64,000 nt of DNA from Phyllosticta citribraziliensis (Eukaryota): positions 744,001 to 808,000 of the forward strand of contig NW_027117340.1 of assembly GCF_038025025.1 (NCBI RefSeq), written 5' to 3'. Within the stretch, counting starts at the first letter, position 1; each line of letters begins with the position of its first letter. Under the pieces are notes generated by a model. It saw only the letters and a program-made list of their open reading frames with translations, did no database searches and had not been told where the DNA came from. Positions 9,021-49,949 of the stretch are shown piece by piece. The position numbers were made by a program, and so were the translations under genes.

Positions 9021-9109
9021 CTATTAATAGGTTAACTTTACTTATAGAGGGTATTAATTCTCTATCTACTCCTCCCTAATAAGTTCTCTTACTCCTATCC
9101 CGCCCTATA

Positions 9110-19184: not shown

Positions 19185-19185
19185 G

Positions 19186-19196
19186 ATATAAAAGAT
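19186..19196 (+). promoter_or_regulatory. Self-priming (Tf1-type) primer binding site of A
   Basis: ATATAAAAGAT is the exact reverse complement of ATCTTTTATAT at 19071-19081 inside the LTR, downstream of TATA-like sequence. Confidence 0.7.
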
Positions 19197-19491
19197 TATT
19201 CTAAGTTTTAGCTCTATCCTACTTCTTACCTATAAAGGTATTATAATATTTAACCTAAGTGATGTTGTGTGTAGCTATAGTCTTATATAAGACTGCTTAT
19301 TACTTTTCCCTAGTAAACCTAAGTTATCTTTATTAGGCGTATTAGTATTATCTAAGGACTAAGGAGCATTAAGTATATATTAACTATAGAAGTCTTTAGT
19401 TAAGGCTATAGGGTAGTATATAAATATTTAGGAGGTATCCTATCTATAACCTGCTTAAGGGACATTCTAAGTAGAAGACTATAAAGATAGT

Positions 19492-24743: not shown

Positions 24744-24857
24744 ACTAATTAGTTTACTATCTACCCTTATATAAATACTATTAACCTTAACTTCTACTCT
24801 CTAGTCTCTCCTTTTTACTACTTATCCCCTACTTCCCTCTTCTTTACTTTCTACCCT

Positions 24858-26356
24858 TTACTTCTATCCTTTTCCCTTCTTCTTATTATGACTATTATTA
24901 TATAAGATAGTCTCCTCTAGATCCTCTAGCTTATTAGGTAGGATATCCTATTTAGCTAAAGCCTAATTAGTTTAATCCTCTACCCTGGCTTAGTAGTATA
25001 AGTTCTAGAACTCCTCTATATAAATTTTATCTTTATACCTCTTATAATAAGTAGGCAGCTTAGCACCCTTTAAGTTACTAATAGTATAGTTTAAGTTACC
25101 TATACCCTAAAGGCAGTTAGTGCAACAGCCCTATAAGAAACTAGGTAGGTGGTAATAACTAATAAATATATAAGTATTAGTATTATTATAATACTTAGTA
25201 TAGCTAATAGGGTTATTAATTCTAGTATACTAGATAAGAAAAGCATTGCGTAAGCTAGCTTAAGTTTTAACTAATAAGTAGTTAAATTACTAAGTAGAAA
25301 CTATAATATATAAGTAAGGTATACTATTACCTAAGGCTAAGATATATTTAGTATACTCTTATACTTCAGAACTACTAAGGCGTGCCTGTATAGTTAGTTA
25401 GATAAGAATCCCTTATATTAGTAAGATAAACTTACTCGTGCGACACTCTCTATATTCTTATAAGGGATATAAAGTATTGACTTAAAGTCCTACTTAATAG
25501 GCACCTTATTAGAGCTGACTAGTGATGCTATAATGTAAATCTTACTATTACTACTATTATATAAAGCAGTAGGTAATAAGTACTTAGCTACTAGAACCTA
25601 ATAAGCTACAGGATTGCAATAATAGCGCGTATAAGTAGGCTCTTTACCTTCTTCCTCTAAAACAGGCTGTGCGACAGTAAACCAGTAGTAATATAGCATA
25701 ATAGGCTGGTTAGTAGTAGGCTATATAGCTATAGATGATAAACCTTATATAATAACTAATAATGCTAATTAAGTAGAACCTAATACTATAGTATACTATA
25801 GGTAAAGTAATAAGCCTATAGTAGTTCCTGGCTAAATAAGTAAAGCCTGGCCTAACTAAGTATTTATATAAGTATCCTCCTCTATAATTATATCAGTTAG
25901 CAAGACGGGACAATGAAGCAGTAAAACCTAGATATATAATACCACTTAATAGCCTAGATAATAATTAGTAATAGTCTAAAGAGATAGAATTAAAGTTTAC
26001 TCACCTTAGGACTCTATATAATAGCCCTTATAGATACTACTAGCTAAAATAGCTCTCTAAGTAAGTAGTAACTATAACAGATTATAAATAATACTACATA
26101 ATAATAACTTAATACTATGACTCTTATATAATAGTAATAAGTCCTGATAGACTAGACTATAATAAGTAGTAGATGTATTAAGTATATAGTAGCCAGGAAT
26201 ATCTACTTTACTATTAGTAGGGTATAAATTATTTAAATTATTAGAACCTTTATGCGCAATAGTTAGTTTACTAGATTATAGCTAAATTAGACTAGGATAA
26301 CAATATACTTTAATAGGGAGCTTTAGATATAGCTAAGTAAGATAGTAACCTTCTAT
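24858..26356 (-). pseudogene. Antisense intron-containing DUF3716-like cargo gene, A1 copy
   Basis: Reverse complement of 38895-40393. Retains the GTGAGT donor and GCTAAC branch site of intron 1. Confidence 0.75.
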
Positions 26357-26548
26357 AGGTTATGCGGTAAAAGAGATGGTAATAGAAAGAGATGGTATAG
26401 TAATAGACCTAGACTAATAATTATACTTTATAACTATATAGAATGCTTAAATTACTAAATTACTACTATTATATATTATAAGTCTGCGCCTGTATAAGTA
26501 TCTGCAGCTACTAATTCCTATGATTTTAGCTTCTCTTTAGGGGGGGCA

Positions 26549-26971
26549 TATTATAATAGGTATATATGCGCCTATATAAGTACTAGGGCCAGTATAGATA
26601 AACCTAGTGTCGCGCGGTCACAGGAAGTACGAGCCTTACCTTAGGTAGTAGCCTACTATAGCTTAGGCTAAAACCTATAGGCTAGTACTAGCTACTACAG
26701 GCTGGCACCAGCTACTACAGCCCTAGGTAGATACCATATAACAGCCCATTAATACCTCACCTTTATAACTTACCTAATAATAACTAAGGACCCTTATGTA
26801 AAGGATAAGAGGTAGAATAGTATAAAGGAAGGACTAGGAAATATATAGGTAGTAAGTATCTTTTATATTTTATTCTTTTAACTTATTATATTTAATTAAG
26901 ATATATATACATTCTCTAGCAGTTCACCTTTAGCCCTTACCTATATAATGAGAAATCTACAAGTCGTGACA
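26549..26971 (+). repeat. 3' LTR of A1 (423 bp)
   Basis: Direct repeat of the 5' LTR, follows the polypurine tract, ends TCGTGACA. Confidence 0.95.
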
Positions 26972-26976
26972 GTTAT

Positions 26977-28190
26977 CCTCCTATATATAAAACTCTAGTT
27001 TTTCTATTATTCCCTATTATTCTAATACTTCCTAGGGCTAATTATTAGGGGTCTAATATAGAATATTAGTAATACTAATATTAGGGGCTATAAGACCTAT
27101 ATACCTTATAGGGTAATTAGTAGTATAGTTAATATTAGTATTATACTATTATTAATTATTAAGGAGCTTAGTAAGTAGGTTATTCTATATCTTAGAGTTA
27201 ATATTATTATTAGCTAGTAGGATATAGATATACTAAATATTAATATTATAGTCCTCCTAGAAAGTCTAGGGTAGTAGTCTATATATAACTATAGAAGCTA
27301 CCTATACTACTATACTATTACTAATATTAATATTAAAACCCTTAATAAAGGCTTTAGACTTAGTAAGATAGTAGTAGTAGATTAAAGGTATATACCTTAG
27401 GTATATAAGCTACTTATACTTATACTAAAGGGGGTTATAGTTAGGGAGTAGGATAATATAGTAACCTATACTAAGCTTAAATTATAATATAGAAATAATT
27501 ATCTTATTCTAAGAAGCTTAGATAAGGAGACTACCTAGGATTAAGTAAGTAATTATAGTAGGGTCTATAATATTTAATAGTATAGGAATATTATAGTCTA
27601 TCTATAGGGTATAGATCCTAATACCTATAGTTTTAGGGTTTCTTATTATTAGGTAATTATAGATCCTAGTTAGTATAGCTTTATTATTATTAAACCTAAT
27701 AGTAAAGTAGTTATAAGGTACTTTAGTAGTAACTATACCTTAACCTATATAGATAGGGCTACTATTAGCTATATAGTAGGCTTCCTCTTTCTTAAGGGTA
27801 GTAGTAGCTTATATATTAGCTTTATTATTAGTCTACTTATTCTACTAGTATATCTCTTATAATATCTCTTTAGGGATATAATTAATCTAGCTACTATAGA
27901 TACCTAGAATAGCTATAAGGTAGTTAGATTATACTTCTAGGGTATCCTTACTATATATCTTAAGGAAATTAGAGTTATTTATAATTATAATAGTATCCTC
28001 TAGGGTAATATTAGATAAAGTATATAGGTAGTAGATAAAGTCCTTATCTTTTATAGGGATTATTAGGGCCTACTAGTTCTTTCTATTACCTACCTAAAGG
28101 GTATAGTACCTATTACTAATATTATACTCTCTATCCCTTTCTACTAGGTACTTTATAAACTTCTAGAGCTATAGTATTAGGAACTAGTAA
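26977..28190 (-). pseudogene. Third ORF of C, C-terminal half
   Basis: One coding-like frame (FIKYLVERDREY...IPIKDKDFIYYL...LKKEEAYY) continuous across the AAGTT TSD. Aligns by eye with ORF3 of B. Confidence 0.65.
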
Positions 28191-28195
28191 AAGTT

Positions 28196-28368
28196 TATTA
28201 TAAGTTTAGTTGGGACATCTTTTCTCAAGCAAGGATTATCTTCTTATTATTTCTATCTTGGCCCTAGGGCCCTACTTATTCTTATCTACTTACTTATACT
28301 ACTAAGCCTACTAGCTAGTACCTACCTTACTTACCTAAGGTATCCCTAACTATCTATAGACTATAATA
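28196..28368 (-). repeat. 3' LTR of B
   Basis: Direct repeat of 48047-48219. Confidence 0.93.
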
Positions 28369-28509
28369 GTAGTAGCTAAAAAAAGGAGTTATCCTTAACT
28401 TAGAATTTACTATTCTCCTCTACCTATTAAGAAACATCCCCCTCCTAGGATAAGTAAGGAAAGAAAAGGAAAATTAGAAAGAAAGAAATAGGTCTATACT
28501 AGAATATAT

Positions 28510-31440
28510 TTAATTACTAGTATCTCTATCTTTATCTATATTAAACTAGTCCTTACTACCTATTATATTATTATCTTAAGGTAGGGCTAATAACTAGATA
28601 AGGAGGTTTTTCTATATATTAATACTATAACTACTTTTACCTTCTCCTAGTATAGGTATATAATATATAGTAATACCTATATCTATATAGAAATTAGGGT
28701 AAAGGTATCCTAAGGGAATATAGCCTATAAACTAATTAGTAAACCTAATATTAGTATCTAGGAATTATTACTCTAGGCTATCTATATCCTATAATATATA
28801 TAATATAAGTAGTTATAGGGTAAGTAGTCTAGTAACCTATATATATTCTAGAGGGTCCTTCCTAATATATTAGATTAAGTAGTTTAATCCTATATAAAAA
28901 GTAAGGTTATTAACTAATATAGAAGTAATAAACTTATTAGAGATAATTCCTCTAATAATAAGGTATATAGCTTAGTAAGGGTCTATTATAAGGAGTATAG
29001 CTATTAGGTCTATATATTAATAAAGAGAGCCTACTTTACCTAAATTAAGGTATTAATATACTATATAGCTTATTAAGTACTCTAGGGAAGTAGCTATACT
29101 TAGACTAGTAATATTATCTTAATTAGTAGGACTATCCTTAGGGATTAAGAGGTCTTTTATACTAATATTAGATCTAATATACTTATTATTATTATTAGGT
29201 TTACCTAAAAGTAGCTTATCCTAAGTTATAAGTAGGGTATTATTAGTATCTACTATAAATATAGTATAGTTAGGGTAGTCTAGGTAAACCTATAGAGTAA
29301 GCTTATCTAGGCCTTTAGGTTTTATATCCTATAATATTATATCCTTATTAAAAGGGGATATACCTTAAAGTATTTTTATAAGCTCTACCTTATTATTATT
29401 AATAGGACTATTATATTAGTACTAACCTACTCCTACTCTAGGAGTATAGAACCTGGTACCTATAGACTACTTATTCCTATTTTTTATAAGGGTAGTAGTA
29501 AATATATAGAGCTCTACTAGTAGTATATTACCTCTTATTATATAGTCTATTATAAGAGTATAATAGCCTACTCTATCCTATATTTCTTACTTATAAAGGT
29601 ACTACTTTATACCCTTAGGGACTAGGATATCTTTATATATAGAGAAAAGTAGTCTATTATAACTATAAATAGTAAGGCCTCCTATTACCTAAGGGTATAT
29701 CTTATTAATATTAGGGTTACTAGGCTTCTTTCTACTAATATACTTATTATAGCCTTCCCTACTAATAAGTCTATACTATTCTATAAGTATTATATACTAG
29801 ATCTTACTATTCTTATCTTAGTAGTATAAGGCCTATCTATTAGGGTAATAATATAGGTTTAGTCCTCTATCTTTATAATAAAATAACTAGAGTTAGTAGA
29901 GGTTATAAAACTTAAGATCTATTATTACTTAATAAGCTAAGTAGTAGAGGGTACCTATTATTATAGAGGATAGGCTTATACTAGGTAGGGGAAGGTATTA
30001 ATCTTTAATAAATATATCTAAAATATAGTTAATAATAGAAAAGTTACTAGTATCTATAAGGAATATAGTATCCTAGTCCTATTTATACTCTATAAAAGTC
30101 TTAGGGTTATAGAATAGATAGTATATATTTTCCTTTAAGAATAACTAGTCTCCTATTTTACTTTAGGGACTAACTACTACTAGTTTATCTAGTATAATAT
30201 TAGGTATACCCCTTAGTTTCTTTAATTATATAGTAATATTTAGTATACTAGTAGTCTTCCCTATTTTCTTTATCTTTTATAGTATAGCTAATCCTTTAAG
30301 GTCTACCCTTTCTTTTCTCTATCTTAGTATTAGGGTATCTAGGAATTCCTTTCCTAAATCTATATTATTATTAGGAATTTAGGGTATATATTAAATTATA
30401 GTTATAATAATTTTATTAGTATTATAGGAAGTATTAATAAGTTAATAGGTTTACTTTCTAATAGCTAAATTCTAGGCCTATAGATCTATATTAGTAATAT
30501 CTACTATTTTATAACTTACCTTAACCTATAGAGTTACTCTAATTATACTAAAATTAGGAGGTATCTATATTAGGTAAGAAGCTAGTATTCCTATACTAAG
30601 AAGGCTTATAGCTAGGTTAGGGATAAGACTAGATTAAAGTATAATTTCTAATAAGAAGATAGGTATCTACTATCTCTTATCCTTAATATCCTCCTCTAAT
30701 TCTTTAGTAGTAAAGTACTTATACTTATTACTATAATTAGTATTATACTCCCTTATATATATTTCTAGTATACTACTATCTTTATTATCTTAGTAGAAGC
30801 TATAGGTCTAGTATCCTAAGCCTCTAGCCCCTAATATACTATATCCCTATATAGTTATAGAGGTAGAAGGTAGTATATTTATTATTAGTATATCTACTAT
30901 CTATATTATAGTACTAATATATAAAATAGTCTTAAAGGGGTCTACTATCTCTTTATTATTAGTAACTTAGTTTAGTATATCCTATTATAAATACTTACTA
31001 ATATTAGGAGAGAAGTAGTTATTCTATACTTCTAGTTTAGAAATAATATTATTTTACTTAAGAGTAGGTATACTATTACTAGTAGTAGAGGTATTATTTA
31101 GTATTATATCTACTAGGGGAACTATACCTATATTAGGTACTATATTATAGTTATTATATAAAAGGTTTTACTATTCTTATAGGTTAGTAATATTTATTAG
31201 GGTAGTACTAGTAAGTCTATTCCTATTATAGTTTAAAGACTAACTATATTAGTCTCTTAGATAGTTTATATATTTATATTATAGATAAGGTTATATAGTA
31301 AGGTTAGTATAGGGTTATAAGTTAATATCCTATAGGGCCTAGTATTAATTAGGTATATATACTATAGCTAGTATTAGTTACCCTATTAATATATAGCCCT
31401 CTTCTTACTTAGTAATACTTATATATATAAAATATTTTTA
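28510..31440 (-). pseudogene. Third ORF of B (about 900-980 codons, unknown function)
   Basis: One minus frame is coding-like for ~2.9 kb (KYFTTKELEEDIKDKR, DLGKEFLDTL, REGYNKYISRKKP). Its stops are TAA/TAG, compatible with RIP. Confidence 0.7.
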
Positions 31441-31544
31441 ATAGTAATATCCTTATAGGCCTCCTTTTATTAGGAGGTACTTAGGTATACTATATTAGCT
31501 CCCTCTATAAGGTAGGTACTAATTTAGTACTCTTTTCTAGTAGT

Positions 31545-34500
31545 TTAGGGTTTCTTCTCCTTATTCTTTATACCTAGTAGATAACCTTATTACTTTAATA
31601 TTATAGGGATAGCTATTTCTAGTAGTATATATAGTAGTTTATTATATAATAGCTTATTCTATAGTAGTTTATTATATACCTTAGTAGGTAGTAGCTTATC
31701 TATATTATTATTTTCCTTTAGGTCTCTAGGTATAATAGTAGTATATTAAGGTAGTCCTAGTTTCTATTAGGGCCTATACTAGTCTAGCTTTACTATTATC
31801 TCTTTATTTAACCTTATATTATATTCTCTAATAAGATCTATTACTCCCTTTAAATTATCTAAGTTATATTATACTTAATACTATAGCCCCTAGCCTTTCT
31901 AATTAATTAAATATTATAGTTTCCTAGTCCTATAATATTTATACCTATCTACTAAGTATAAGATTTTATACTTAGGTACTAGCTTATTAGTATTAATAAT
32001 AGGTCCTAGCTCTAATATAGTATTATACTTAAAAGGGTTAGGACCCTCCTTTTCCTTTTCTAATTAGGAGATATTAATAACTAGATAAATCCTTAAGCTA
32101 CTAGGGATAGCTAGTTTATAGGCTTATATACTAATTACTTATATTACTTTATAAGGTCTAGTATATATATTCTAAAGTTTCTATAGTAGATTACTATATA
32201 TCTTATATTTATAGTATAACTATAGATATACCTTATCCCCTAGTTTAAACTAGACTAGATAGTACTTATTATTATATTACTCCTTTTATACTACTACTAT
32301 AAAAGTAAGGGCTTCTTAAGCTTTAATATAGTAGTTTAAATAGAGGGTTTTTAAGTCTATATCTTTAATAGATTCTATCTAGTTATACCTATTATCTTAT
32401 AGGTTAAATCTATATAAGATTTTATAGGGGGTATATCCTATTAAGGTATTTTAAGAAGAATTTATAGTCCCTTAAATATAAGGGAGAGTATTTATCTAAC
32501 TCTAATTAGGGTTAGCTATAATAAAGAACTATAGAGTAATTTCTATTATCTAGTTAATATACTTACTTTATCTATCTATCTAGGAATAGTAAGTAGTAGT
32601 AGTATTTAGGTTAATTTTTATTATTTTAAAAATACTACTTATAAATTACCCTAACTAATAGGAGTCCTAGTCTATAATTATAATAGAAGGTAGACCCTAT
32701 CTATATCTATAGAGTTCTTTAAACTATAAACCTCTCTAATTACCTATAGTCTAGGTCTCTTAACTAGGGATTAGTAAGATTACTTTAGAAAATTTATAAA
32801 TTATAATTAAAAGTATATTAAAATCCCCTTTACTATATATAGGTAGCTTAGTAATAAAATTAATATATATAATAAAGAAGGGGACCTTTACTACTATAAT
32901 AGGGACTATTAACCTATTAGGTTTATATTAAGGTATTTAGTTAATATAATAGTTAGGATAGTAATTAATATATACCTATACCTACTAGTATAGGTACCTT
33001 ATATAGTAGTAAGTATAAATATAATCTATATATTAGTCTATACCTTAATAGAAATACTAATTATATACTTATTTAAATACTACTTACTTATAGCTTTAGG
33101 GAATATATAGCTATTCTTACTAGTCTCTTAAGTAGTCTATAAAGTAGATTAGCCCTTTCTATAGAAAGAAGTATAGACTAGGAACTAGTCCTTTATAGGG
33201 GTCCTTATTTTCTTCTATATTATTAAGGGGAATAGGCTCTACTACTATAATAGGGGCCAGTATTACTATAGGTATAGGGTTTATATTAGTAGGTTACTCT
33301 ATAGTTATTATAGGGTTTACTAGCCTATAGTTATATTCCTACTACTACTTAAGGGCCTACTCTAAAATATAGAGTACCTTCACCTATTATATATTAGTAC
33401 TATATACTATATAGAGCTCTTACTTAAATCTATTAAAGAGTTCTACTAATACTATATAGAAGTAAGTAGTAGTATTACTACCTTTTAAGGTATACTAAAC
33501 TAGGTCCTTATTATTAGGGAATTCTATACTATTAAGGGTATTATCTATATCTATAATTACCTTAGATAATAATTAGCTTAGTATATTAGGGATAATATAG
33601 TTCCTCCCTAGCTAGTACTATACCTTTAATAGATACTAGCTTAGATATTAGCTTATATATATTAGATATAGGTTTAGTTACTCTATAAATTAGGAGTTTC
33701 TAAAGTATAGCTAGTATATAATAGTAGTAACTACTAAATAGTTAGTAAATACCTAAGTATCCTTAAAGGCCTATATAAGTATTTATAATTTCTTAATTAT
33801 CTAAATAACTCCTATTATCTTAAGCTTAGTAGTCTAGTACCTTATCTTAGCTCCTAAAAGATACTAGAATAGAAAGGCTATTAATTTAATAGACTACTTT
33901 AAGAAGTCCTTAGCCTTCTTAAGCTAATTTATAGTAGGGTTTTTACCCTCTATATTCTCTATATTTATAGTAGGAGTCTAGTCTTCTATAACTAATTTAA
34001 GATTACCTTTTATATAGTAGGCTATTATACTAAAACCTAACTCTTTACTAGTATCTATATTAATAAAAAGGGGCCTCTTAGGTATATAGTAAAAATACTA
34101 TTATATTTTATAAAGGGTTATTTATATAGCCTTAAATAATACTACTAATACTAGGGAGTCTAGTAGTACCTATACTACTATATATTAGTAGTATACTTAT
34201 TTATCTTTAGGAGTACTTTATAATAGTATAGTTTTTATAGCTTCTAGTAGTTCTACTAGTTATATATAGTAGGGATAGTTATCCTATAGCTAGCTAATAA
34301 GCCCTATAAAGGTTTCTAGTTCTTAGAGGGTCCTTAGGAATTTAAGGTCTTTTAGAGCTTAGATCTTAGCTTCTAATATTATAATACTAAACCTAGATAC
34401 CTACTATTCTAATAGTATAATAGATAGGTATCCTAACTAAGACTTCTTAATACTTAGGCTTATATTTATACTATTAAAGATAGTAAATACCTTTTTAAGG

Positions 34501-37500
34501 TAATCTAGGTATTCTTTTAATATTTTAGAGAAAATAGTAATATTATTAATATATATTTATATAAAAGTATAGTAGTTCTAAAGAAGAGTATTATACTACT
34601 ATTATATATATTATATAGAGTTATAGTATCCTATTAGGGCTATATTTAACTATTTAGTACCCTAGTAAGTAAGTATAATTAGCTTATATTAGTTATTAGG
34701 ATAGATCTACTACTAATAGAAGAAAGAGATAGTATCTACTACTAAGATATAGAGGTAATCCTAGATATTAGAGATAATATTAATAGCTAGGGGGAGTAGC
34801 TATAAGTCCTTTTTACTAATAGTATTAAAGGCTTATATATTTATAACTACTTATCCTTTCTACTCTAGGGTCCTATTCTCTTTAGGGACTAGCTTCTATA
34901 CTATAAATATAAAGAAGTTAAGATAAGTATCTCTATATACCTATTCTACTTTTCCTTATTTATATATAGGGTTAAGTATAGTATCTTAGAATTTATAGTC
35001 CCTTTAGGATATAGGGTATAGTCTTTAGTATTTAAAATATTTATACTAGCCTAGAACTAATAGTATCCTTATCTAATCCTTTTTAGGAACCTTAATAAAT
35101 CCCTTTTAATTATAGAAAAGATCTTAAAACTAATCTACTAGTTTCTAGTATAGTAACTAAACCTTAGGGGTCCTAAATATAGTAATACTATTATTAAGCT
35201 TAGCCTCCTCTATAATAGGTATAGTAGGATTTAAACTAGCTAGGCTATATTCTATATCTATAAAGTAGTATATCCTATTAAATTCTATAGTAATAATACT
35301 ACCTAGCTATATATTCTAGGAGATTATAAGAGACTAATCTAAGTTATTTCTAGTAATAATCTAGTTTATATCTATACTAGTAACTATAGTATAAAGAGTA
35401 CCCCCCTTTTATAGGAAGGGTATAGGATATATAGTTTTATTAGGATAGAACTTATATACTTAGTAAGGGAGGTCTAGTCCTAGGATTTTAATAAGTAGTT
35501 TTATCTAGGACTATAGGGGTATTATTATATTCTTTATAGTATATATATATTAGTAGATAGGAGTTAAAAATAGCTTAGTTATTATACTAGTATTTAGTCC
35601 CTTAGGCCCTATATATAGCTATACTACTTAGTTCTAACTAATATTAATAATTACCCCTTTAGGATATAGGAGGTTATTTCCTATAAATAAAGGGATATTT
35701 AACTTATTAGTTATCTAAGTATAGTAGGGAAGAAAGCTAAGAGCCTATCCTACCTTAGTTTATCTAGATAAATAAAGGGGAAGTATTATATAATTAGTAT
35801 ATTCTATCTTATATCCTACTTTAGTAATAATTATAGGTTTCTTAAATATTATTATCTTAATATTAGGGAGCTTTTCCTTTAAAAATATTCTATTTACTAT
35901 TAAGGATAAGGTACCTATATTAAGATACCTAATATCTATTATTCCTATAGGGGTTAGCCTAAAACTAATCTCTATTAATTAATATTTAGAAAATAGAGGT
36001 AGATTATCCCCTATACTAAGTCCTATAAAGGTTATAGATAACTCTAAGATTAGTACCTTTAATTCTATATTAACTATGGCCTTATCCTTTATCTTCCTAT
36101 ATTTACTATTAACTATATTAAACCCTAATATAGTAAGGTAGACTATTTAGTAATAGTATCCCTAACTAAGTATAGGAGTACCTTACCTATAGTACTATAT
36201 TACCTATACTATAAGGCTAAGAGGAAAGATTAATACCTACTAAAGAGCTATAACTATTAGAGTAAAGATATACTAAGAGGGGATAATATATTACTTAATT
36301 CTATTATTCTAATAGCTTTTAGGTACTAGTTACCTACTAACTAGATAGTACTCTATTTAGGTCCTAAATTCTTAAGTAGCCTAATACTTACTTAATTTAA
36401 ACTATATTTAAAACTATTATCCCTTAGGTACTAGTATAACTTATATTTAGAAGGGAAGCTTATTTAGTAGCTATTATATACTTTTTAGGGATTAAGTACT
36501 ATTATATTATTACTAGGAGTATAGTTAAAAGTATTATCCTAGATAAGTATATATCTATACTAGGAGTAGTAATTAGCTCCTATTATAATTATAGGCTTAC
36601 TATTATTTAACTATAATTTCTCCTTATTAATTATAGGGGTCTCTATACTAGTATCCTTATTACTTTTAGTATCTTTACTTTCCTTATTAGTATCCTTATA
36701 CTTACTTTTAGAGCTATCCTAGGTATAGTATTATATATATATAGTAGGTTTATAATTATAGTTATAGTTATAGTTATAGTTATAATAATCCTTAGGCTTT
36801 AAATAGGACCTAGAACTAGACCCTTTTAGGTTAGGAGTAGGGAGTATACCCTACTTAGGATAGGTTACCTATTTTATATTACTTAGTCTCCTAGTACTTA
36901 TATTATACTAGGATACTAAGTATATTCTATTAGATTAGTTAAAAGGCTAGCTAGTAGTCTATATTAAAGTATATCCCTAATTCTAGCCCTTAGGGAAGAA
37001 TACCTTACTAGTAGTAGTTATATTAAAATATTAGGATAGGTATTCCTAAGTCTACTAGTAACTCTTAATATTCTTAATAAATACTTAAATTATAGTATTT
37101 ACTATAGGTTTAGGGATCTACTACTAGAAGTAAGGGTTAATATATATATAGGTATTAGCTAATTAATTATATATAGTAAGGAAACTAGTAGCTTATCCTA
37201 GATATATATAGGTAATAATAAAGTCCCTTATACTTTTAGTATAGACCTCTAGGAGCCTAAAGTATACTCTATTTAGTACTTTAATAACTTTATATTATAT
37301 TATACTAAAGTCTTTATATAGTAGTAAAGTCTAATTATTAATACTATATCTAATATATATAAAAGCTTAGTCTTCCTCTATAAGTTAGGAGGTATACTAT
37401 ATATTTAATAATCCTTTTAGGTACTTCTATAGGTTAGTATAGATTAGATCTACTCTATAGGTAGTATAAGCTATTAAGGTACTATTAATAAACTACTCTA

Positions 37501-38279
37501 TAGTATAGTATAAGACCTTCCCTTATTTAGTTATACTATCTCTATAGCTAATATCTTCTTCTAGTAGATTAGGGTTAAAGTAATTAATATTATCTAGATA
37601 GAAATACTAGGCTATCCTCCCTATATATAATTCTAAGGTTAAGGCCTAGTTATACTCCTTATTATCTCCTATACCTTATAGAGGAATAAATTAAAAGGTA
37701 GTAAACTATTTATCCTCTTTATCCCTATCTTTAAGAGAAGGGGAGCTTAATAGGGGTAGTTCCTCTATCTTATACTAGGTATACCTTTCCTAGTATTACT
37801 ATCCTTAATTTTTACTAGAGAAGTAGTTCCCTTCCTATAGCTATAGTAGTCTTAATAGTAGTCTACCTCTACCTTAAGGTATACTTATTTTAAGTATAGA
37901 TAGGTATATACTAAGCTTCTTAAGTTACTTATTAACCCCCTTATTTATTATAATAAGGTTTATTATCTATACTTTCTATTATTTAAAGAATATATCTTAA
38001 AGTATATCTAGCTTTACTTCTAAAGATTCTAGGGTTATAATAGGCTACTAGATCTCTTTAGTCTAGTCTATAGTATTATACTAGTTATATATATATAGGA
38101 GTATTATATTATATAGGGGTAGCTAGTTATAATATATATACTTTAGGGGAGGATTTTAGTTTCCTAGTAGCTATTAGTAGAAGAAAGGAAGACTACTATA
38201 TATATATTAGCTAGAGGTCTAAATAAAACCTAGGCCTATACTACTCTAGAAAATATTAGGTAGTTAACTAAAGGGTTAA
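31545..38279 (-). pseudogene. gag-pol relic of B
   Basis: Gag with a C2H2-like finger at 36425-36481, protease near 36050-35950, RT 34542-34553, RNase H PLFINIDTSK near 34050-34080, integrase 32100-33100, chromodomain L*YLIN*KG*G near 31890-31925. Confidence 0.88.
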
Positions 38280-38702
38280 TGTCATGACTTACAGATTTCT
38301 TATTACGCAGGTAAGGGCTAAAGGTAAACTACTAGAGAATGCGTATGTGTCTTAATTAAATCTAATAAGTTAAAAGAATAAAATATAAAAGATACTTACT
38401 ACCTATATATTTCCTAGTCCTTCCTTTATACCATTCTACCTCTTATCCTTTATATAAGGGTCCTTAGTCATTATTAGGTAAGTTATAAAGGTAAGGTATT
38501 AATGGGCTATTATATAGTATCTGCCTAGGGCTATAGTAGCTAGTACTAGCCTATAGTGGCTAGTGCTAGCCTATAGGTTTTAGCCTGAGCTATAGCAGGC
38601 TACTACCTAAGGTAAGGCTCGTGCTTCCTATAACTATATAATACCAGGTTTATCCATGCTGGCCCTAGTACTTATATAGGCATATATATGCCTATTATAA
38701 TA
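38280..38702 (-). repeat. 3' LTR of A2
   Basis: Reverse complement of 26549-26971. Confidence 0.95.
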
Positions 38703-38894
38703 TGCCCCCCCTAAAGAGAAGCTGAAATTATAGGAATTAGCAGCTATAGGCACTTATATAGGTATAGACTCATAATATATAATAGTAGTGATTTAGTAAT
38801 TTAAGCGTTCTGTATAGTTATAAAGTATAATTATTAGTCTAGGTCTATTATTATACTATCTCTTTCTATTACCATCTCTTTTACCGCGTGACCT

Positions 38895-40393
38895 ATAGAA
38901 GGTTACTATCTTACTTAGCTATATCTAAAGCTCCCTATTAAAGTATATTATTATCCTAGTCTAATTTAGCTATAATCTGGTAAACTAACTATTACGCGCG
39001 AAGGTTCTAATAATTTAAATAATTTATACCCTACTAATAGTAAAGTAGATATTCCTGGCTACTGTGCGCTTAATATATCTGCTGCTTATTATAGTCTGGT
39101 CTATTAGGACTTATTACTATTATATAAGAGTTATAGTATTAAGTTGTTATTATATAGTGTTATTTATAATCTGTTATAGTTGCCGCTTACTTAGAGAGCT
39201 GTTTTAGCTAGTAGTATCTATAAGGGCTATTATATAGAGTCCTAAGGTAAGTAAACTTTAATTCTATCTCTTTAGACTATTACTAATTATTATCTAGGCT
39301 GTTAAGTGGTATTATATATCTAGGTTTTACTACTTTATTATCCTGTCTTACTAACTAATATAATTGTAGAGGAGGACACTTATATAAATACTTAGTTAGG
39401 CTAGGCTTTACTTATTTAGCCAGGAACTACTATAGGCTTATTACTTTACCTATAGTGTGCTATAGTATTAGGTTCTGCTTAATTAGTATTATTAGTTATT
39501 ATATAAGGTTTATTATCTGCAGCTGTATAGCCTACTACTAACTAGCCTATTATACTATATTACTACTGGTTTACTGTCGCACAGCCTATTTCAGAGGAAG
39601 AAGGTAAAGAGCCTACTTATATATACTATTATTATAATCCTGTAGCTTATTAGGTTCTAGTAGCTAAGTACTTATTACCTACTACTTTATATAATAGTAG
39701 TAATAGTAAGATTCGCGTCATAGTGTTGCTAGTTAGCTCTAATAAGGTGCCTATTAAGTGGGACTTTAAGTTAATACTTTATATCCCTTATAAGAATATA
39801 GAGAGTGTCGCGCGAGTAAGTTTATCTTACTAATATAAGGGATTCTTATCTAACTAACTATGTAGGTGCGCCTTAGTAGTTCTAAAGTATAAGAGTATAC
39901 TAAATATATCTTGGCCTTAGGTAATAGTATACCTTACTTGTATATTATAGTTTCTACTTAGTAATTTAACTACTTATTAGTTAAAACTTAAGCTAGCTTA
40001 TATAATGCTTTTCTTATCTAGTACACTAGAATTAATAACCCTATTAGCTATACTAAGTATTGCGATAATACTAATACTTATATATTTATTAGTTATTACT
40101 ACCTACCTAGTTTCTTATAGGGCTGTTGTGCTAACTACCTTTAGGGTATAGGTAACTTAGACTGTACTATTAGTAACTTAAAGGGTGCTAAGCTGCCTGC
40201 TTATTATAAGAGGTATAAAGATAAAATTTATATAGAGGAGTTCTAGAACTTGTACTACTAAGCCAGGGTAGAGGATTAAACTAATTAGGCTTTAGCTAAG
40301 TAGGATATCCTACCTAATAAGCTAGAGGATCTAGAGGAGACTATCTTATATAATAATAGTTATAATAAGAAGAAGGGAAAAAGATAGAAGTAA
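38895..40393 (+). pseudogene. Antisense cargo gene of A2: 3 exons (about 38895-39246, 39370-39815, 39866-40393), about 440 aa, C-terminal DUF3716-like CANC domain
   Basis: Introns 39247-39369 and 39816-39865 have GTRAGT donor, CTAAC branch and YAG acceptor, and splicing keeps the frame. De-RIP reading RNAFLIQYTG...CxxC...RAF.SC.HLPGF..GCCANCL.G....C. The start is uncertain. Confidence 0.78.
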
Positions 40394-40510
40394 AGGGTAG
40401 AAAGTAAAGAAGAGGGAAGTAGGGGATAAGTAGTAAAAAGGAGAGACTAGAGAGTAGAAGTTAAGGTTAATAGTATTTATATAAGGGTAGATAGTAAACT
40501 AATTAGTCTA

Positions 40511-43500
40511 CTTTCTATATCTTTATAATATTTACTGTAGGCCTAAGTAACTTATTTTATTATTACTTTCTATTTTAATCTATAGTTCTTCTTAGAGGAA
40601 GGTAGTCTTCTATTTTTCTAGATTTTTTAGTAGTCCTGCCATGGTGGGGTATAATAAGTGGAATTCTTTAATTTTCTATAGTGTGCTGCTAAAAGAACTT
40701 ATATTATACTACTAGTTATCTTAGTTATATCTAGTCTATTTAACTTGGTATTGAAGCTTTCTATATGAGACTTGACTAGCTTAAATATAGTCTACTTCCT
40801 ACTTAGGCTCATCTTGAATGATCTTAGGTTCTAGTTTAGTATATTCTTAACTAGGAAGCTATTCTATTTTAGCCTTATATAGCCTATTAGTATAGAAAAG
40901 GTTAACTATCTTTATATATAAAGGAAGATTAAGGATATAGGAGGGTCCTTCTATTCCTATAATCTTAAAAGGTCTAGTATTAGGGAAGTCTAATTTAAGG
41001 TTTAGCTAATTAGTAGACTATCCTATTTTCTTAATATAGATATAATCTCTAACTGTAAAGTCTGGTGTGTGATGGTATTTATTAGCTTATTAGTATATAT
41101 ACTCTTAGGATTTAAGAATAAGATTCTTTATAAATTTAAAAGCTTCTTATCTTCTCTTTTATAGTATTTATACTACTATATAAGCCATCTTTTCTGGTTA
41201 CTAGGGGGTCTCTATTCTTTATTGCTAGTTATAGTATATTTAAGGGGAATATCCTAACTTAATCTTAAAAGGTAAAAGTCTAGTAGCTTTATAGGGAAGT
41301 ATTACTTGTGCAAGGTCTATTAATAGTAGAAGATTAGACTAATTATTCTAAAAGTAATTAATAAAAGGTCTTAATCTTTATATAAGATACTGATTAATAA
41401 TCTCTATAATACTATTAGTTTAAGAGTAGTAGGATAAGTTAAAATGCTACTCTATACTAGTTAGCTTATATAATTCATTTATAAATACTGAGATGAACTG
41501 AGGGCCTTAGTTAGATAGGATAGACTTAGGGTTTCTATAAATATAATAAATATATTTATAAAAGAGCCTAGAGACTCCTTTAGTATTAATCTTTTTTATA
41601 TAAGGTAAGCTGAAGGTTCTTTAACTTAACTAGTCTATAATAACTAGAATTATATTGTAGCCTTTTTAGTCCTTAGGTATCTCTTTAAAATCTATGGCTA
41701 AGTGTTACTAGGGTTAAGTGGGAATTTCTAGGGGTTATAGAAGGCCTAGGTCTTTATTATAAAACTCTTTTATTTAGTAGTAAATATGGCATCCTTGCCT
41801 ATAAATATTAATTATATAATTTATAGCTGGCTAGTAGTAATATTACTTAAGGAGTTTTCGCATCTTTATAATACTAGGATAAGCAGTTATATAAGTAGTA
41901 TATAAGGTATTAAGTATTCTTATACAGAGGTTATCATAATCTAGTATAAAGAGGGTACTGTATTATAGTAAAAGACTATCCTTTAGTTCCTAACTATTTC
42001 TTTATTTAAGGTCTTTTAAGAGGGCTTTCTATCTTTAGAGTTCTAATTTAGAATCTTCTTAGTTTATATAGAGAAGTTCATCTAAAAATAATACTAGAGG
42101 AGGAAGTTCTTATTCTAAAATAGAAAGAGGGATAATAGTCTCTAGTAGGATAAGGTATATCTCTTATATAGCCTTTACTTTTTCTTTTTAAGTCTTCAGG
42201 TCTTCTTATTTTTAAGTAAGGTAATTAGTAATAATATTTTCCTTTCCTAGTTAATAGGAGAAGTATATATGGAACTCTATAAAAAACTTAGACTATCTAG
42301 CTTATTATTAATTAAGTTATTATTTGGTAGAGTAGTACTCTAATACCTAATAGTCTGTAATTATAAGAAAAGGTTTTTTAAGGCTAATAAGTATTAGTCT
42401 CTATTCTTCTAGTCTATTCTTAATAGCTAGTAGTTCTTTATTAGATATTCTATAATGAAGTTCTGTATTAGCTATTGCCTTAGAGTAGAACGCTACTAGT
42501 TTCTAATTATGTGAAGGTTATTAGAGCTATATTAAAATGCCTATAGTAACTCTATTACTTATATTAGTCTCTATATAAGTATTAAGAGTAGGATTATAAT
42601 TGGCTAGGAGTGTATTACTATATATTAGCTTCTTAAGTTGTTAAATTACCTCTTCTTCTAGGAGTCCTAGTTATTGCTATTTTACCTTAGAGTATAGTTT
42701 CTCTAATAGCTGGCTAATTTATCTATAGTTAGGGAGAAATTATTAGTAGAAATTATAGAAACCTAGGAAGGATTAAAGAGCTTTAAGGGTTTTAGGTATT
42801 AGCTAGTTTTATATAGGTTCTACCTTATCTAGGTCTATTTAAATGCCTTCTATAGAAATAATATATCTAAGGAACTTTATATAAGTAACTAAAAACTTAC
42901 TCTTCTTTAAATCTACCTATAGTCCTACTTTTTATAGTCTTACTAGTACTTTTTTTACTTATTCCTTATACTCTGTAGGGTCTTTAGAGATAATAAGTAT
43001 ATTATCTATAAAAGCTATAATAAAATTGTCTAAATACTTAAAGAGAACCTAGTTAATAAAATGTTAAAAGGCTGTAGGTCTGTTGCTTAATCTAAATGGT
43101 AAGATATAGTATTTAAATAAGCTATATCTTATATAGAAGGTAGTCTTATCTTTAGAATCCTTAGTAAGATAAATGTGGTGGAAAGCTTATTAAATATTAA
43201 GCTTAGTATAAATTTTGCCCTTTCTAACGCGCTGAAGTAACTCTATAATAAGAGGAAGGGGGTATAAATCCTTAGTAGTTTATTTATTAAGCTATTAGTA
43301 GTCTATATAGAATCTCTATCCCCTACCAGGCTTTTTTACTACTAGAATAGGAGAAGTGTAGGTGGTAAAGCTTTTAGTAATAAAGCCTTTCTAAATATTC
43401 TTAATAATATACTCTTTTATAGCCTTAAGCTGCTCTAGAGATATTCTATAGAGAGGACTTAGTAGAAGCTCTAGTAGACTATTATATATAAGAGTTATTT

Positions 43501-45759
43501 TATAATTAACTCCTATGTAATATAGTGGTAGCTTATTAGACTCTATTTTAGAAAATATATCTTGAAATTCCTTATAAGTAGCTAGTAGCTTAGAAGCTAG
43601 TAATTCCTTAGTTTCTTTATCTTTAAGAGCTACTTAAACTTGTATGAGGTTGATAGTATAGATCTCTATTAGTATAAGTTGTAATTTATAGATAGAAATC
43701 TTAAAAGTATCTTAATTTTGAAATTTAATTCCCTTAATAACCTGTACTAAGGGAAGAAGGTGTTTATTAAATTTTTTATCTCTGTAGTCTGTATCTGCTT
43801 AATGTTCTTTCTGCGGTTCTTTACTTTATATAGAGACTTTTAGTAGGTGTAAAAGATACTAAAAGGATTAGTTAACTAGTAGCTATCTCTAGACTAGTTT
43901 ATATTATTTATAGTCTAGAAGAATATCGTGCTGGTTAAAAAACTATTACCTAAGAATTATATTATTATGGCTAATATTATAAATAAAAGTATAAGTAGAA
44001 ACTATTTAATCTTAGAAATAGAGTTAAAGATAAAAGTAAAAATTAACTTTCTTATTTATATATTAGTTAAACCTAGTAATATTAAGCCCTTTGCCTATTA
44101 TTCTCTTTTTTACAGTACCTATAGACTAGAGAGTTAGTAGTAGCTTAGGGTAAATAAAACTTATACTACTAGTACTAGTATTAGCTAGGGCATAAATTTC
44201 TAAGGTATGGCTATTAGATATAATTGAGGTTTGTATAGTAAAGGGTATACCTCTAATAAAGTGACTAAGATTTATGCGAGAACCTTTAATATGTATTACT
44301 CTAAGTTTAGATCTAAGGTAGGAGACTTTACCTAGGCCTTATTATTTTCTAATAAAGACTAATCTCCTTTATTTATATAGACTTCTTCTATACTTTCTTC
44401 TTCTACTAACTCTATTGCCTTTATCTCTAGTTATAGGTATTACCTCTATAAATGGCTAAACTAGCTATAGTGATTATATGGTCTAATCTCTATATAGACT
44501 TCTACTTTACCTTTATAGGTTATATTATATAAGGGAGCCCTAGATATAGATCGCGCCTAGGTATAATTAGAAGATAAAGTACTTATACTACCTAAGGTAG
44601 TTATCTTTACTTATTCTTATTATCTCTTCTTTACTTAATCCTTACGCGACGTGAGTATTAGTTTTCTTTAATTAGAATAGTAGTTACTAAGACTTTAAGT
44701 AATAGGGTAGGCTTATTAGAGGTACTTATAAAAGTTAATATCCTTATCTTACTTTATAGTAACTATATAGGTTTAAAGGAGAGGATCTATTATATTATAA
44801 AAGTCCTCTTTCTACTATTCTTAGGGAAGATCTATATCTAAGGCTAATTATATAAAGTTTAATTAAAACTTCTAAAGGTCTGTAGGAATATAGTATATAA
44901 GAGAGTATAACTACTTCTTTATATCCTTATATTTATATAGACTCTAGAAGAGGTTATCTAGGAATTTAAAGATATCCTTATCTAGAGTGACTTTATTGGC
45001 CTTTATATAAGAAGTGAGAAAAGGAGTTAGGTAATATAAGACTTCTCTACTAATATAGGAAATAATATAACCTATAATATTCTATTTAGTCTCCTCTACT
45101 ATATCCTTAGTAAAGTGATCGTGGTTTTATTTAATTTTATTTTATATAAGGAGGGTCTAGTATTTATATAAGGGGTCTTCTCTATTAGTAAGAAGAGGAG
45201 GATTAGGAACCTTACTACTTTAGTATTTCTTACTACTTAAAGATAAAGTAGAGGTTTTAGTAGTAGTTTCCCTTATATAGGTAGGAGGATCTTAAGAGAG
45301 GATAATAGGTCTTAGGTACTAAGATAATAAAGAGGGCCTAATATGTCCTTCCCTTAGAACTTCCCTAAGCCTATTAGTATAGTTTAAGAGCATTTACTTA
45401 AGAGCCCAGTTCTACCTTTATATATAGTTTAGTTGCTGCTATACTTAAGACTTATTTAAGGATGTAATCTTAGATTTAAATTAATTAATATCTAAGTGTG
45501 GTACCTTTATAAATACCTCTATAACTAGAGCTTAAACTGTATAAGTTAACCCTAGGTCTTAGGTATATTCTTTCACCTCTACTGCTAGAACTAAGTAGAA
45601 ATTATATAGGAGAATAGGGGTAGGTCCTCTCTTATTATTATTTAATAAGTATCTAGTATTGCGCGAATCTTTAGTCCCTTTATATAAATCTTATTAAGTT
45701 AATTAACCAGTACTGACACCTTTAGTAGTGCTAGATATATTAGCTTTATTCTTAGCTAT
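40511..45759 (-). pseudogene. gag-pol relic of A2
   Basis: Collinear reverse complement of A1 19492-24743. Confidence 0.92.
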
Positions 45760-46066
45760 ACTATCTTTATAGTCTTCTACTTAGAATGTCCCTTAAGTAG
45801 GTTATAGATGGGATACCTCCTAAATATTTATATACTACCCTATAGCCTTAACTAAAGACTTCTATAGTTAATATATACTTAATACTCCTTAGTCCTTAGA
45901 TAATACTGATGCGCCTAATAAAGATAACTTAGGTTTACTAGGGAAAAGTAATAAGTAGTCTTATATAAGACTATAGCTATATATAATATTGCTTAGGTTA
46001 AATATTATAATACCTTTATAGGTAAGAAGTAGGATAGAGCTAAAACTTAGAATGATCTTTTATATC

Positions 46067-46489
46067 TATTATAACTTATAGATTTCTCATTATATAGGTA
46101 AGGGCTAAAGGTAAACTACTAGAGAATATATATATATCTTAATTAAATCTAATAAGTTAAAAGAATAAAATATAAAAGATACTTATTACCTATATATTTC
46201 CTAGTCCTTCCTTTATACTATTCTACCTCTTATCCTTTATATAAGGGTCCTTGGTTATTATTAGGTAAGTTATAAAGGTGAGGTGTTAATGGGCTGTTAT
46301 ATAGTATCTACCTAGGGCTGTAGTGGCTGGTGCTAGCCTATAGTGGCTAGTACTAGCCTATAGGTTTTGGCCTAAGCTATAGTGGGCTGCTACCTAAGGT
46401 GAGGCTTATGCTTCCTATAACCGCGCGACGCTAGGTTTGTCCGTACTGGCCCTAGTGCTCGCATAGGCGCGTGTATGCCTATCGTGACA
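46067..46489 (-). repeat. 5' LTR of A2
   Basis: Direct repeat of 38280-38702, ends ATCGTGACA. Confidence 0.95.
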
Positions 46490-46494
46490 GTTAA

Positions 46495-47940
46495 TAAGAA
46501 TAGCTATAAAGAGGCCTATAGCTAGGTAAGAAGGGAGGTTATCTAAACTAGCCTTTATAAATATAGCTAGTACCTTTCCTAAAGTTTAGTAGAATATACT
46601 AGTCTTTAAAATTATTATCTATAGAAGAATAGAGACTCTATAGATTATATTTTAACTTATTATCTATAAGTAGGCTACTAGTATAGGTAACTAGCTACTT
46701 TCCTTTAAAAGATTTTAATTAGGAAGTCTAAAGAGGTATTATCTACTTATCTTAGGGCTAGTATAGCCTTATAGTTATATATATCTATAACTAGAGTTAT
46801 TAATAGGTATATATAGAAGTAGAGTAATATAAAGAAGATAAGTATCCTTAAGTAGGTATAGGTATTAGTAAAATAGGTTATTAAGGCTCTATAAATAGTA
46901 TAGGTTATAGATAAATTAATATATAATATAGAGATTTTAATTAAGGTTATCTATAAAGTAAGGTAATAGATATTTATACCTAAGAAGAGGGTAGATCTAT
47001 TAAGTAGATAACTAGTTAGCCCTTTCTCTATTTAGATATAGTATAGCTACTAGTAGGAGAAGTAGGTCCTAATAGTTTCTAGATTAACCCTAGTATAACT
47101 TCTAGGGTAATTATAATAGGTCTTAAAGGTAACTAGGGTACTATCTTAACTTATAGCTAGGGAGGTACTTTAAGGACTATACCTAGGGCTAGTACCTCTA
47201 GTATAGTAGGATATTCTAGTATAGTTAGAGAAAGGTACTAGAATAGATTATATAGGGACTAGGATACCCTTAAACCTATATTTATATTATATTAGCCTAC
47301 CTCCTTATATAGTATAATTAGGACTAGATTTAGCAGTAAACCTACTATATTAGTAGAGGTTAATATACTTAGTATTATAATCTTTATACCCTTAGCTAGA
47401 GCCTCTTCTATATATTCCTATTCTATAACTACTAGGTAATTCTCTAGGAATAGTTTAGTATAGGTAGTATTAACTTATTCTAAGGCTTATTAGAAAGTAG
47501 CCTAGTTTATACCTCCTATAAAGTCCTAGTATACTAGATAATCTAGGTACCTTTAAGAGGCTATAATTTATTAAGTAGATACTCCTATACTATCTAGGGG
47601 CTTAAATATTTCTATAATAAGGTTAATATAAGTTCTAGTTACTAGGATAATCTATTTAAGCTATTATTTATATTTACTATAATAGAGGAAGGCCTTAAGT
47701 TACTAAATAGATAGTATATCCTCTTCTAAAACTAATATAGTAAACTTATTATTTAGGGACTATATTATAGATAGTTCCTTATACTAGTACTAAGTATTAA
47801 AGGGAGGAGTAAGTATAGTAGAAGTAAGGGTCCTACTATAATAATACTAATACTAGGTTATATAAGAAAGGAGATCCTTACTAGGTACTATATAGAAGTA
47901 TATTATTAGCTATTTTAAGGGGATCTTCCTAGGTTTTAAT
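46495..47940 (-). pseudogene. Extra ORF(s) upstream of gag in B (ORF0)
   Basis: Coding-like minus frame about 47940-46930 (FTILVLEEDILS, KLFLENYLVVIE*EYIEEALAKG, LEYPTILEVLALG) and a second frame about 46930-46500. Confidence 0.5.
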
Positions 47941-48046
47941 AGAAGTAGACTTATAGTATTTATATATTAGTAGTAATAAAGGTCCTAGATATAGAGGGGA
48001 TACTATAGTAAAAGGAAGTACTATAGTACTTTTAGCTACTAAAAAA

Positions 48047-48219
48047 TATTATAAGTTCAGTTAGGATATCTTTTCTTAAATAAGGATTATCTTCTTATTA
48101 TTTCTATCTTAGCCCTAGGGCCCTACTTATTCTCATCTACTTACTTATACTACTAAGCCTACTAGCTAGTACCTACCTTGCTCATCTAAGGCGTCCCCAA
48201 CCATCTGCGGACTACGACA
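48047..48219 (-). repeat. 5' LTR of B
   Basis: Direct repeat of 28196-28368. The outer end is un-RIPed (...ACTACGACA). Confidence 0.93.
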
Positions 48220-48224
48220 AAGTT

Positions 48225-49552
48225 AGCTAGGTCTAATATTAATAGATAGAATTATAATTCTATAGGGAAGATTAAGTATATATAATCTAATATAAATTTA
48301 GGGACCTTAAATATATAGTCTAGGATTAGAAATAGACTATAGTACTTATATAAGTTAACTATAATACTATACTATAGGGTAGTAGAGTTAATATTAATAT
48401 CCCCTTCCTCCTTATAGTCTAGGAACTATTAGTAACCCTAGTCTCTATAGAATAAGTATCTACCTAGCTTAGTAAGATAGGTAAAATATACCTATCCCTA
48501 CTTATTAATAATTAGTAAACTAAAACCTATAGGGTAATATAGTCTATTTATACCACCTTCTATTAGGAAATAGGGGTATAGGCTCTTAGTAGTATAGTAA
48601 TAAGTTAGCTAGATAAATAGACTCCTTATAGTAGTAGGGTATTATTATAGATAATATAATAATAGGCCCCTATATACTTAAAAAGTAGCTACTTATAGGT
48701 ATCCTAGAGGAAGTAACCCTTTCTATAATTAGAGGGTTTAAAGGTATTAATATTATATAGCTTTAGCTTCTATAACTTCTTTAGGTATATCTAGTTACTA
48801 GCTATAGTTAATTTAGCCTTATCTTTACTAAAGTTATTATTATTATCTCTATAGAGTATTAAGGTATTATTATCTATAGTACTATACTCCTTAATATTAT
48901 AAGTAGCTTTACCCTTACCCTTATAGTAGGTTATAATAGGGGTATTATTATTACTAGATATTAGAATAAAACCCTCTACTTTATTAGTATCTAGTATAAT
49001 AGGGGCCTTTCCTATTAGTATAAGAAGCTATTTATACTTAAAGGGAGTAGTTATAGCTATTAGTAAAGTATTATTTAATTAGTTTCTATTATAGTCTAGG
49101 GGCTAGCTACTATTCTTCTTTATATTAGAGGTCTTATCTTTATTACTTTATCCTATAACTATAACCTCCTCCTTATTACTTTCCTTAGTATTATTACTTT
49201 AAGTATATTAGGGTTATTTAGTAATAATAGGTAAACTACTTATAGGTATACCCTACTTAGTTATTATTAGTATTTCTAGTAACTATATAAGTAAAGATAT
49301 ACTTCTAGGTATTTCTAGGAGTATAACTATAGCCTTTAGTATAATACCCTTAGGTTTATCTAGTATAGCTAGGGGTAAGTCTATACTACTACCTTTAGTA
49401 CCTTTCTTTAGCTTTATAATATAATAAGGAACTATATTAAGTAAGTTAGGCTTATTAGTCTTAGTTAAATAGATAAAGTATTAGATAGTAGTACCCTTAA
49501 TAGCTAAGGTACTTACTAATATACTAGAGATACCCTTCTTTTTTAGGGGTAT
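48225..49552 (-). pseudogene. Third ORF of C, N-terminal half
   Basis: Begins ATA CCC CTA AAA AAG AAG (de-RIP MPPKKK). Low-complexity N-terminus with KGKGKA, one apparent frame change near 48600-48660, then continues at 28190. Confidence 0.6.
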
Positions 49553-49949
49553 AGTATAAAGGATAGTATATAGTATAAATTAGAGGGTATACTAGTTATA
49601 AGGGTAGGTTAATAGTATAGTAAAGATTAGCTATATACTAAAATAGTAGGTCCTAAATTAGTAGGTACTAAGCTCTAAATAGTTCTAGATTAAAATAACT
49701 AACTTAGGAAAATCTATTTAGCCCTTTATATTATTTATATATCTACTATACCTCTCTAAATAAAGGAATAAAATAAAGAAACTCCCTTATAACTCTATTA
49801 TTCTTTATTATTAACTATTCCTCCTATTAAATAAAGGAAATCATTATTCTCCCTATTATATAAAGGGGTAATTTCTATATAAATAGTAATATAAAATAAT
49901 AATAGGAAATAAGAAAGAATAGGAATACTAATACTAACTATACTATATT

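Follow-up and report, generated by a model that had tools for sequence, protein, structure and literature searches.

To our knowledge, an RNase H-resistant purine tract is regarded as the universal plus-strand primer in retroviruses as well as in retrotransposons with long terminal repeats (LTRs). The site of the plus-strand primer is by definition the sequence abutting U3, in the wording available from a Ty3 review, which in the same part has the Ty3 RNA ends brought together by a tRNA bridge (PMC5371799). As far as the accessible portions of the respective papers go, pairing of CYC5 with CYC3 is required for efficient initiation in Ty1 (PMC4974528), the Tf1 complement of its own primer binding site (PBS) is the transcript's first 11 bases and is cut by RNase H (PMC7175516), and a minority of plant elements are predicted to self-prime or to have no detectable PBS (PMC6317226). 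Here we describe element B, which lies on the minus strand of a 64-kb window (the whole stretch of Phyllosticta citribraziliensis contig NW_027117340.1 that was analysed, 64,000 nt) and in which the place of the purine tract is taken by the inverted copy of a candidate PBS. The arrangement is a real anomaly in a single copy. We give a probability of roughly 0.4 to the reading that B transposed with this PBS mimic, an exact complement 1 nt upstream of U3, working as the plus-strand primer site instead of a purine tract.

On the forward strand, the 12-mer TAGTAGCTAAAA occupies 28370-28381, and 48030-48041 holds its reverse complement; these two, one per strand, are its only occurrences in the window. 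On the sense (minus) strand of B, the copy at 48030-48041 is the candidate PBS, with TAGTAGCTAAAA as the form that repeat-induced point mutation (RIP) would give to a sequence starting TGGTAGCTA; a 5-nt spacer (48042-48046, minus strand, TTTTT in the sense direction) separates it from U5. The copy at 28370-28381 is the PBS complement, or 'anti-PBS', at the polypurine-tract position of the minus strand, where the sense strand reads TTTTAGCTACTA, then one C (28369, the 1-nt spacer), then U3. An earlier reading of this DNA from the letters alone (the sequence-only reading) had put one copy of the 12-mer 5 nt in from the 5' LTR and the inverted copy 1 nt in from the 3' LTR, and the LTR borders as we map them (28196-28368 and 48047-48219) bear this out. 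The likeness between the two inner edges ends at exactly 12 nt on both sides. That reading had also raised the question of chance, and we find an inverted exact match of at least 12 nt in 69 of 198,749 random pairs of 20-nt windows (3.5e-4), a figure inflated by true inverted repeats within the window. Its caution that the motif is common in RIPed DNA was well placed for the 9-mer TAGTAGCTA, with 18 + 16 = 34 copies in the window, but the full 12-mer has only the two.

In B, the 3' LTR has no polypurine tract against it. Upstream of U3 the sense strand has AACTCCTTTTTTTAGCTACTAC, a stretch with purines at 6 of 22 positions and at 4 of the last 12, and as the sequence-only reading had noticed, no G-run adjoins the LTR; the nearest on the sense strand (28437-28446, minus strand, AGGAGGGGGA) lies 69-78 nt from U3, too distant to define the LTR end. 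A run of seven T on the sense strand (28378-28384, minus strand) overlaps the 12-mer and is like the T-run upstream of U3 in L011, one of the related loci described below. RIP makes only C-to-T and G-to-A changes, i.e. transitions, and the purine/pyrimidine pattern at the U3 border is therefore older than RIP. The two LTRs are 88% identical, with 21 differences, all 21 of them transitions, and zero indels over 173 positions, so that a non-RIP change at the junction is unlikely. That G-runs survive RIP in the elements A, D and E, as had been claimed, holds for D, whose copies retain AGGGGGGGCA directly against U3, and for A, whose copy at ~14.6 kb has AGGAGGGGGGGA near the LTR start.

The U3 border itself appears genuine, because the LTR start TGTCGTAG and the U5 end make up an inverted repeat when RIP transitions are taken into account, the first eight positions agreeing in purine/pyrimidine pattern with the reverse complement of the U5 end, and because the L011 LTR begins in the same way (TGTCGTAGATCC). 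The LTRs, both on the minus strand and 173 bp long, comprise a heavily RIPed 3' copy (28196-28368) and a 5' copy (48047-48219) whose U3 end is little RIPed and whose sense strand starts TGTCGTAGTCC. They are bounded by a target-site duplication, AAGTT at 28191-28195 and identically at 48220-48224, for which the probability of a 5-mer match at this composition is 0.005. B is thus a complete two-LTR integrant with a target duplication and a junction pattern that RIP cannot produce, from which it follows that the parental RNA already had the arrangement and that the plus strand of this copy began at the U3 border without an abutting purine tract.

The assignment of B rests on its RIP-degraded pol (31761-35570, minus strand; reverse transcriptase (RT), RNase H, integrase and an SH3_Tf2-1-like domain), recognised by homology to gypsy polyproteins. 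Its translation, with X at stops, is colinear with these through RT, RNase H and integrase in a phmmer search that returned 10,208 matches (best E 2e-103), P0082 covering query residues 3-1054; the precomputed Pfam domains of the matches are RVT_1, RT_RNaseH and rve. When B itself was searched against Pfam, SH3_Tf2-1 alone came up, at 29 bits where the cut-off is 30. These matches, with the SH3_Tf2-1 match, set the sense strand as minus, and the order RT, RNase H, integrase is that of Ty3/gypsy pol. A chromodomain-like stretch can be seen by eye at the pol tail; no Pfam Chromo match was obtained at E of 0.01 or less, and some related proteins carry PF00385. The window as a whole has ~27% GC and consists of nested LTR retrotransposons piled up on one another, and its depletion of CpA/TpG (294 CA and 483 TG vs 14,459 TA) is the fungal RIP signature. 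Judged from its sequence, then, B is one RIP-inactivated Ty3/gypsy insertion.

The flanks of B at 27056-27453 and 48532-50421 are themselves colinear with the B 3' region (RIP-tolerant score 443.5 vs 311 for the reverse-complement control), and the left and right alignments give about one shared insertion point in B coordinates. This colinearity makes B a single clean insertion into an older relative, B', whose pol (50505-55993) is ~67% identical to that of B. A search of the window with the B LTR gave best non-self scores of 64.5 and 54 (99th percentile 61.7), and hence no clear other copy; colinearity predicts the B' 3' LTR near 18253-18425, and the second-best match falls at 18276-18411. 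We take this score-54 match as the putative B' 3' LTR (minus strand, weak match) only because it lies at the predicted place.

Relatives were sought with the top phmmer matches, which are intact metagenome polyproteins; an alignment of 14 of these retrieved 80 metagenome loci, of which 56 are at least 4.5 kb long and 23 have distant direct repeats. Twenty were inspected, three others (L014, L066 and L076) having repeats that are not LTR-like, and 14 with both junctions entered the count of inverted repeats. The count leaves out L006, of which only the 3' junction was read because its repeat extends as far as the contig end, and five loci whose repeats are overlaps of contig ends (L027, L028, L050, L052 and L064). 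The relatives are distant, at ~25-30% identity to the degraded B query and 40-50% among each other, and are not members of B's family.

In the nearest clade, TGGTAGC follows the LTR end by 2-3 nt in L001 (TGGTAGCACC), L008 (TGGTAGCAATG), L007 (TGGTAGCAACGC) and L017 (TGGTAGCTACGC), the last being the best tblastn match to B pol. L017 carries TGGTAGCTA un-RIPed, with which TAGTAGCTA of B is RIP-compatible. Since four relatives have TGGTAGC at this place, the candidate PBS in B gains support, and it is plausible that the 5' motif is a PBS for the initiator methionine tRNA (tRNA-iMet). The claim that the 12-mer is complementary to the 3' end of that tRNA gains support in so far as TGGTAGC recurs in the four relatives, and falls short in so far as only ~9 of 12 nt may match; the ancestor that had been assumed, TGGTAGCTG, is not needed, given that TGGTAGCTA exists un-RIPed in L017. 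No tRNA genes were found in the window. A cloverleaf in the 76 nt upstream of U3 was looked for by eye and rejected: there is only GGAT at T-loop distance, with no 5' acceptor strand and no CAT anticodon.

In the proposed mechanism, minus-strand DNA next to U3 would read G-TGGTAGCTAAAA, a second PBS, and the plus-strand primer would be an RNA ending ...AGCUACCA. That primer must have stopped at U3 or 1 nt short of it, and its sequence would therefore be that of the tRNA-iMet 3' end. It could be a second tRNA-iMet annealed at the inverted site, or a genomic RNA fragment that imitates the 3' end of the tRNA and is cleaved with the RNase H specificity by which the tRNA primer is freed; in the latter case the RNA/DNA hybrid would be the same in sequence as the tRNA:PBS hybrid, one that RNase H has to recognise in any case for the minus-strand primer to be released. 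These 12 nt, with the 8-nt terminal inverted repeat of the LTR, could also pair the 5' and 3' ends of the genomic RNA. Priming or circularisation along these lines is plausible. It is unlikely, in our estimate, that a whole fungal Ty3/gypsy lineage gave up its polypurine tract, with a second, inverted PBS at U3 starting the plus strand (by a second initiator tRNA or by a tRNA mimic in the genomic RNA) and one motif serving both primings. If it did, less-RIPed copies of B would read TGGTAGCTA... and ...TAGCTACCA; a lineage of this kind would reveal another way of specifying the second primer, and would offer a natural system for how RT-RNase H selects and removes primers. Should the feature be private to this copy of B, it is a curiosity in RIPed DNA.

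Several observations weigh against a PBS mimic as the plus-strand primer site. Only one copy of the arrangement lies behind the claim, and that copy is dead. The 12-mer amounts to a T-run plus the palindrome TAGCTA, both frequent in RIPed DNA, and with a tRNA of the kind that L007 and L017 imply (PBS TGGTAGC[A/T]ACGC), only ~9 of its 12 nt would be a match. The duplex between the two ends, computed on the RIPed sequence, has an energy of -17.4 kcal/mol, which 9.9% of 3,000 random pairs match, so it is not discriminating. At the homologous place B' appears to read ACTTTAGTTTTA (forward strand, on the inner flank of its putative 3' LTR), with the 12-mer absent and the sense flank more purine-rich, as far as a weak alignment tells. 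Short G-rich tracts stand at U3 in the four nearest relatives that have LTR pairs (GGGCAGAT, GGGCAGG, GGGGCATA and GGGAG), the borders reading ...GACGGGCAGAT in L001, ...GGGCAGG in L008, ...GTGGGGCATA in L006 and ...CGGGAG after a T-run in L011. Among the 14 relatives with both junctions, the longest inverted matches at the inner edges are 4-6 nt, in no case above 6 nt, vs 12 in B. We know of no precedent for tRNA-primed plus strands; in the literature searched, with partial coverage, no description of a PBS complement at the purine-tract position was found, and searches on a missing polypurine tract and by sequence word turned up nothing relevant.

The sequence-only reading had taken a normal polypurine tract in intact relatives as a refutation of its proposal. 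At clade level this is what was found, in relatives that are distant: with G-rich tracts at U3 and a PBS complement in 0 of 14, the feature is not general in the clade. A scan of viral contigs for AGCTACCA-N(0-3)-TGTCGTAG gave 29 matches, about the chance expectation, none of them encoding pol, and a search of viral contigs for related loci found seven at 28-30% identity. In L045, one distant relative, TGGTAGCAAC stands at 9277-9322 in direct orientation, with ~20 nt between it and the purine tract and 3' LTR downstream.

The explanation that comes through these data best, apart from the PBS mimic, is coincidence, which we regard as somewhat unlikely. The B lineage would then use some unconventional or short plus-strand signal, and the T-run upstream of U3 (the usual 'U-box') and the A-run after the PBS would both stand beside a RIP-common TAGCTA by chance. 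The abundance of TAGTAGCTA in the window favours this, as does its frequency in the needed orientation, 2.8e-4 per position or ~2e-3 for a 6-nt zone, and so do the similar T-run upstream of U3 in L011, the relatives without the feature and the fact that the sequence-only reading looked at several elements. The rarity of a full 12-nt match, found nowhere else in the window, speaks against it, and coincidence leaves the absent purine tract unexplained.

It is less likely still that the PBS complement serves only to join the 5' and 3' ends of the genomic RNA, aiding initiation or the first strand transfer much as CYC5:CYC3 in Ty1 or the tRNA bridge in Ty3, with the plus strand primed otherwise. 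Twelve base pairs and the 8-bp helix of the LTR terminal inverted repeat can form between the ends, the repeat is 3 nt longer than the likely tRNA match, and 5'-3' interactions are needed for Ty1 and Ty3, according to the available parts of the papers on them (PMC4974528, PMC5371799). Such pairing would, however, compete with the tRNA for the PBS, its duplex energy is not exceptional, and it leaves plus-strand priming unaccounted for. About equally improbable is a defect of this one copy, a junction changed by aberrant reverse transcription or by a small deletion or rearrangement after integration, with no bearing on how the family replicates. Its support is that B' seems to differ from the B 12-mer by about five transversions in 12 nt, again in a weak alignment, and that transversions make up ~1/10 of the differences listed among B copies in public runs (see below). 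Against it stand the 173 aligned LTR positions free of indels and transversions, and a deletion would still have to place a perfect 12-nt complement beside U3 by chance. The likeness to the PBS region breaks off after exactly 12 nt, and a snap-back copy of the 5' region is therefore not supported.

The target DNA just outside the B LTRs is weakly like the inner edges of B (28169-28195 vs 48021-48046, CTAGTAAAAG vs CTACTAAAAA), and between 28369-28380 and 48220-48231 TAGCTA falls in the same register. Chance in RIPed DNA probably accounts for this resemblance, which led blastn to extend the LTR match.

Pieces of B that are 84-98% alike were found in the public runs X1, X5 and X6. Most of the differences listed are transitions, in both directions, and for that reason we take these pieces to be differently RIPed copies. 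One X1 contig joins 47839-48180 to 28330-28869, i.e. the B 5' inner region, one LTR and the B 3' inner region. A tandem B-LTR-B or a one-LTR circle might underlie this contig; since the two B LTRs share a 45-nt identical run, a path switch in the k=31 assembly graph is the simpler reading.

Between pol and the 3' LTR, B has an extra region of ~3.3 kb (28400-31775, minus strand) in which one sense frame has far fewer stops than the others and looks like the remnant of a third open reading frame (ORF). No Pfam match was found in six frames, and tblastn of this remnant against the fetched relatives gave no match at E of up to 10. Two relatives, L003 and L009, have long ORFs downstream of pol as well. 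The possibility that the region is an inverted copy of the B 5' region was considered and rejected, the low-stop frame being on the sense strand and the six-frame Pfam search empty.

Nested within B is an 8.2-kb D-type LTR element (38282-46489, minus strand; target duplication GTTAA at 38277-38281 and 46490-46494), and a contig of run X5 joins 38274 to 46490, the empty site in a B copy of another genome without the nested D. An inverted D copy at 18782-26979, with GTTAT as its target duplication, in turn splits B' (26985-28190, 48225-57350 and 18276-18411), as does a third D copy that starts at ~57352 and reaches the window end, giving three nesting layers in all. In run X1 the depth of a D contig is ~50-100x that of B, which suggests that D has far more copies, depth being only a rough guide to copy number. 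After their 5' LTRs, D (19185-19205, 46040-46063) reads GATATAAAAGATCATTC and A (1207-1225, 9021-9040) reads CTATTAATAGGT, without a TGG-type PBS in either; D and A may use self-priming or another primer.

Among described systems, Ty1, which keeps its purine tract, resembles B in that a site near the PBS is directly complementary to one at the 3' end of the genomic RNA. Ty1 differs in that CYC5 is distinct from the PBS and is found downstream of it, as the available text has it (PMC4974528). Ty3 of S. cerevisiae shares with B its LTRs, a 5-bp target duplication and the order RT, RNase H, integrase, and its short tRNA-iMet PBS, a few nt past U5, has a putative counterpart in B. Ty3 has, however, a 12-nt purine tract, GAGAGAGAGGAA, just upstream of U3, where B has none, and the 3' part of its PBS lies within U3 and pairs with the tRNA T arm, whereas the 3' motif of B is the complement of its own PBS (both from the part of the review at hand, PMC5371799). 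In the Tf1/sushi group, as in B, the element's own RNA holds a stretch complementary to the PBS, but in Tf1 this complement is at the transcript 5' end, inside the LTR, and in B it is upstream of U3. A complement of the Tf1 type was looked for in the B LTRs, where the longest exact run is 6 nt (background mean 6.7, 95th percentile 9); with no complement of the PBS region in the LTR, self-priming of the Tf1 type is excluded for B. The Skipper chromoviruses of Dictyostelium are like B in that a canonical priming signal is replaced and non-canonical priming has been proposed. In Skipper, going by the accessible part of its description, it is the PBS that has given way to a polypyrimidine stretch, whereas in B it is the polypurine tract that is replaced, and by the complement of the PBS (PMC5006619).

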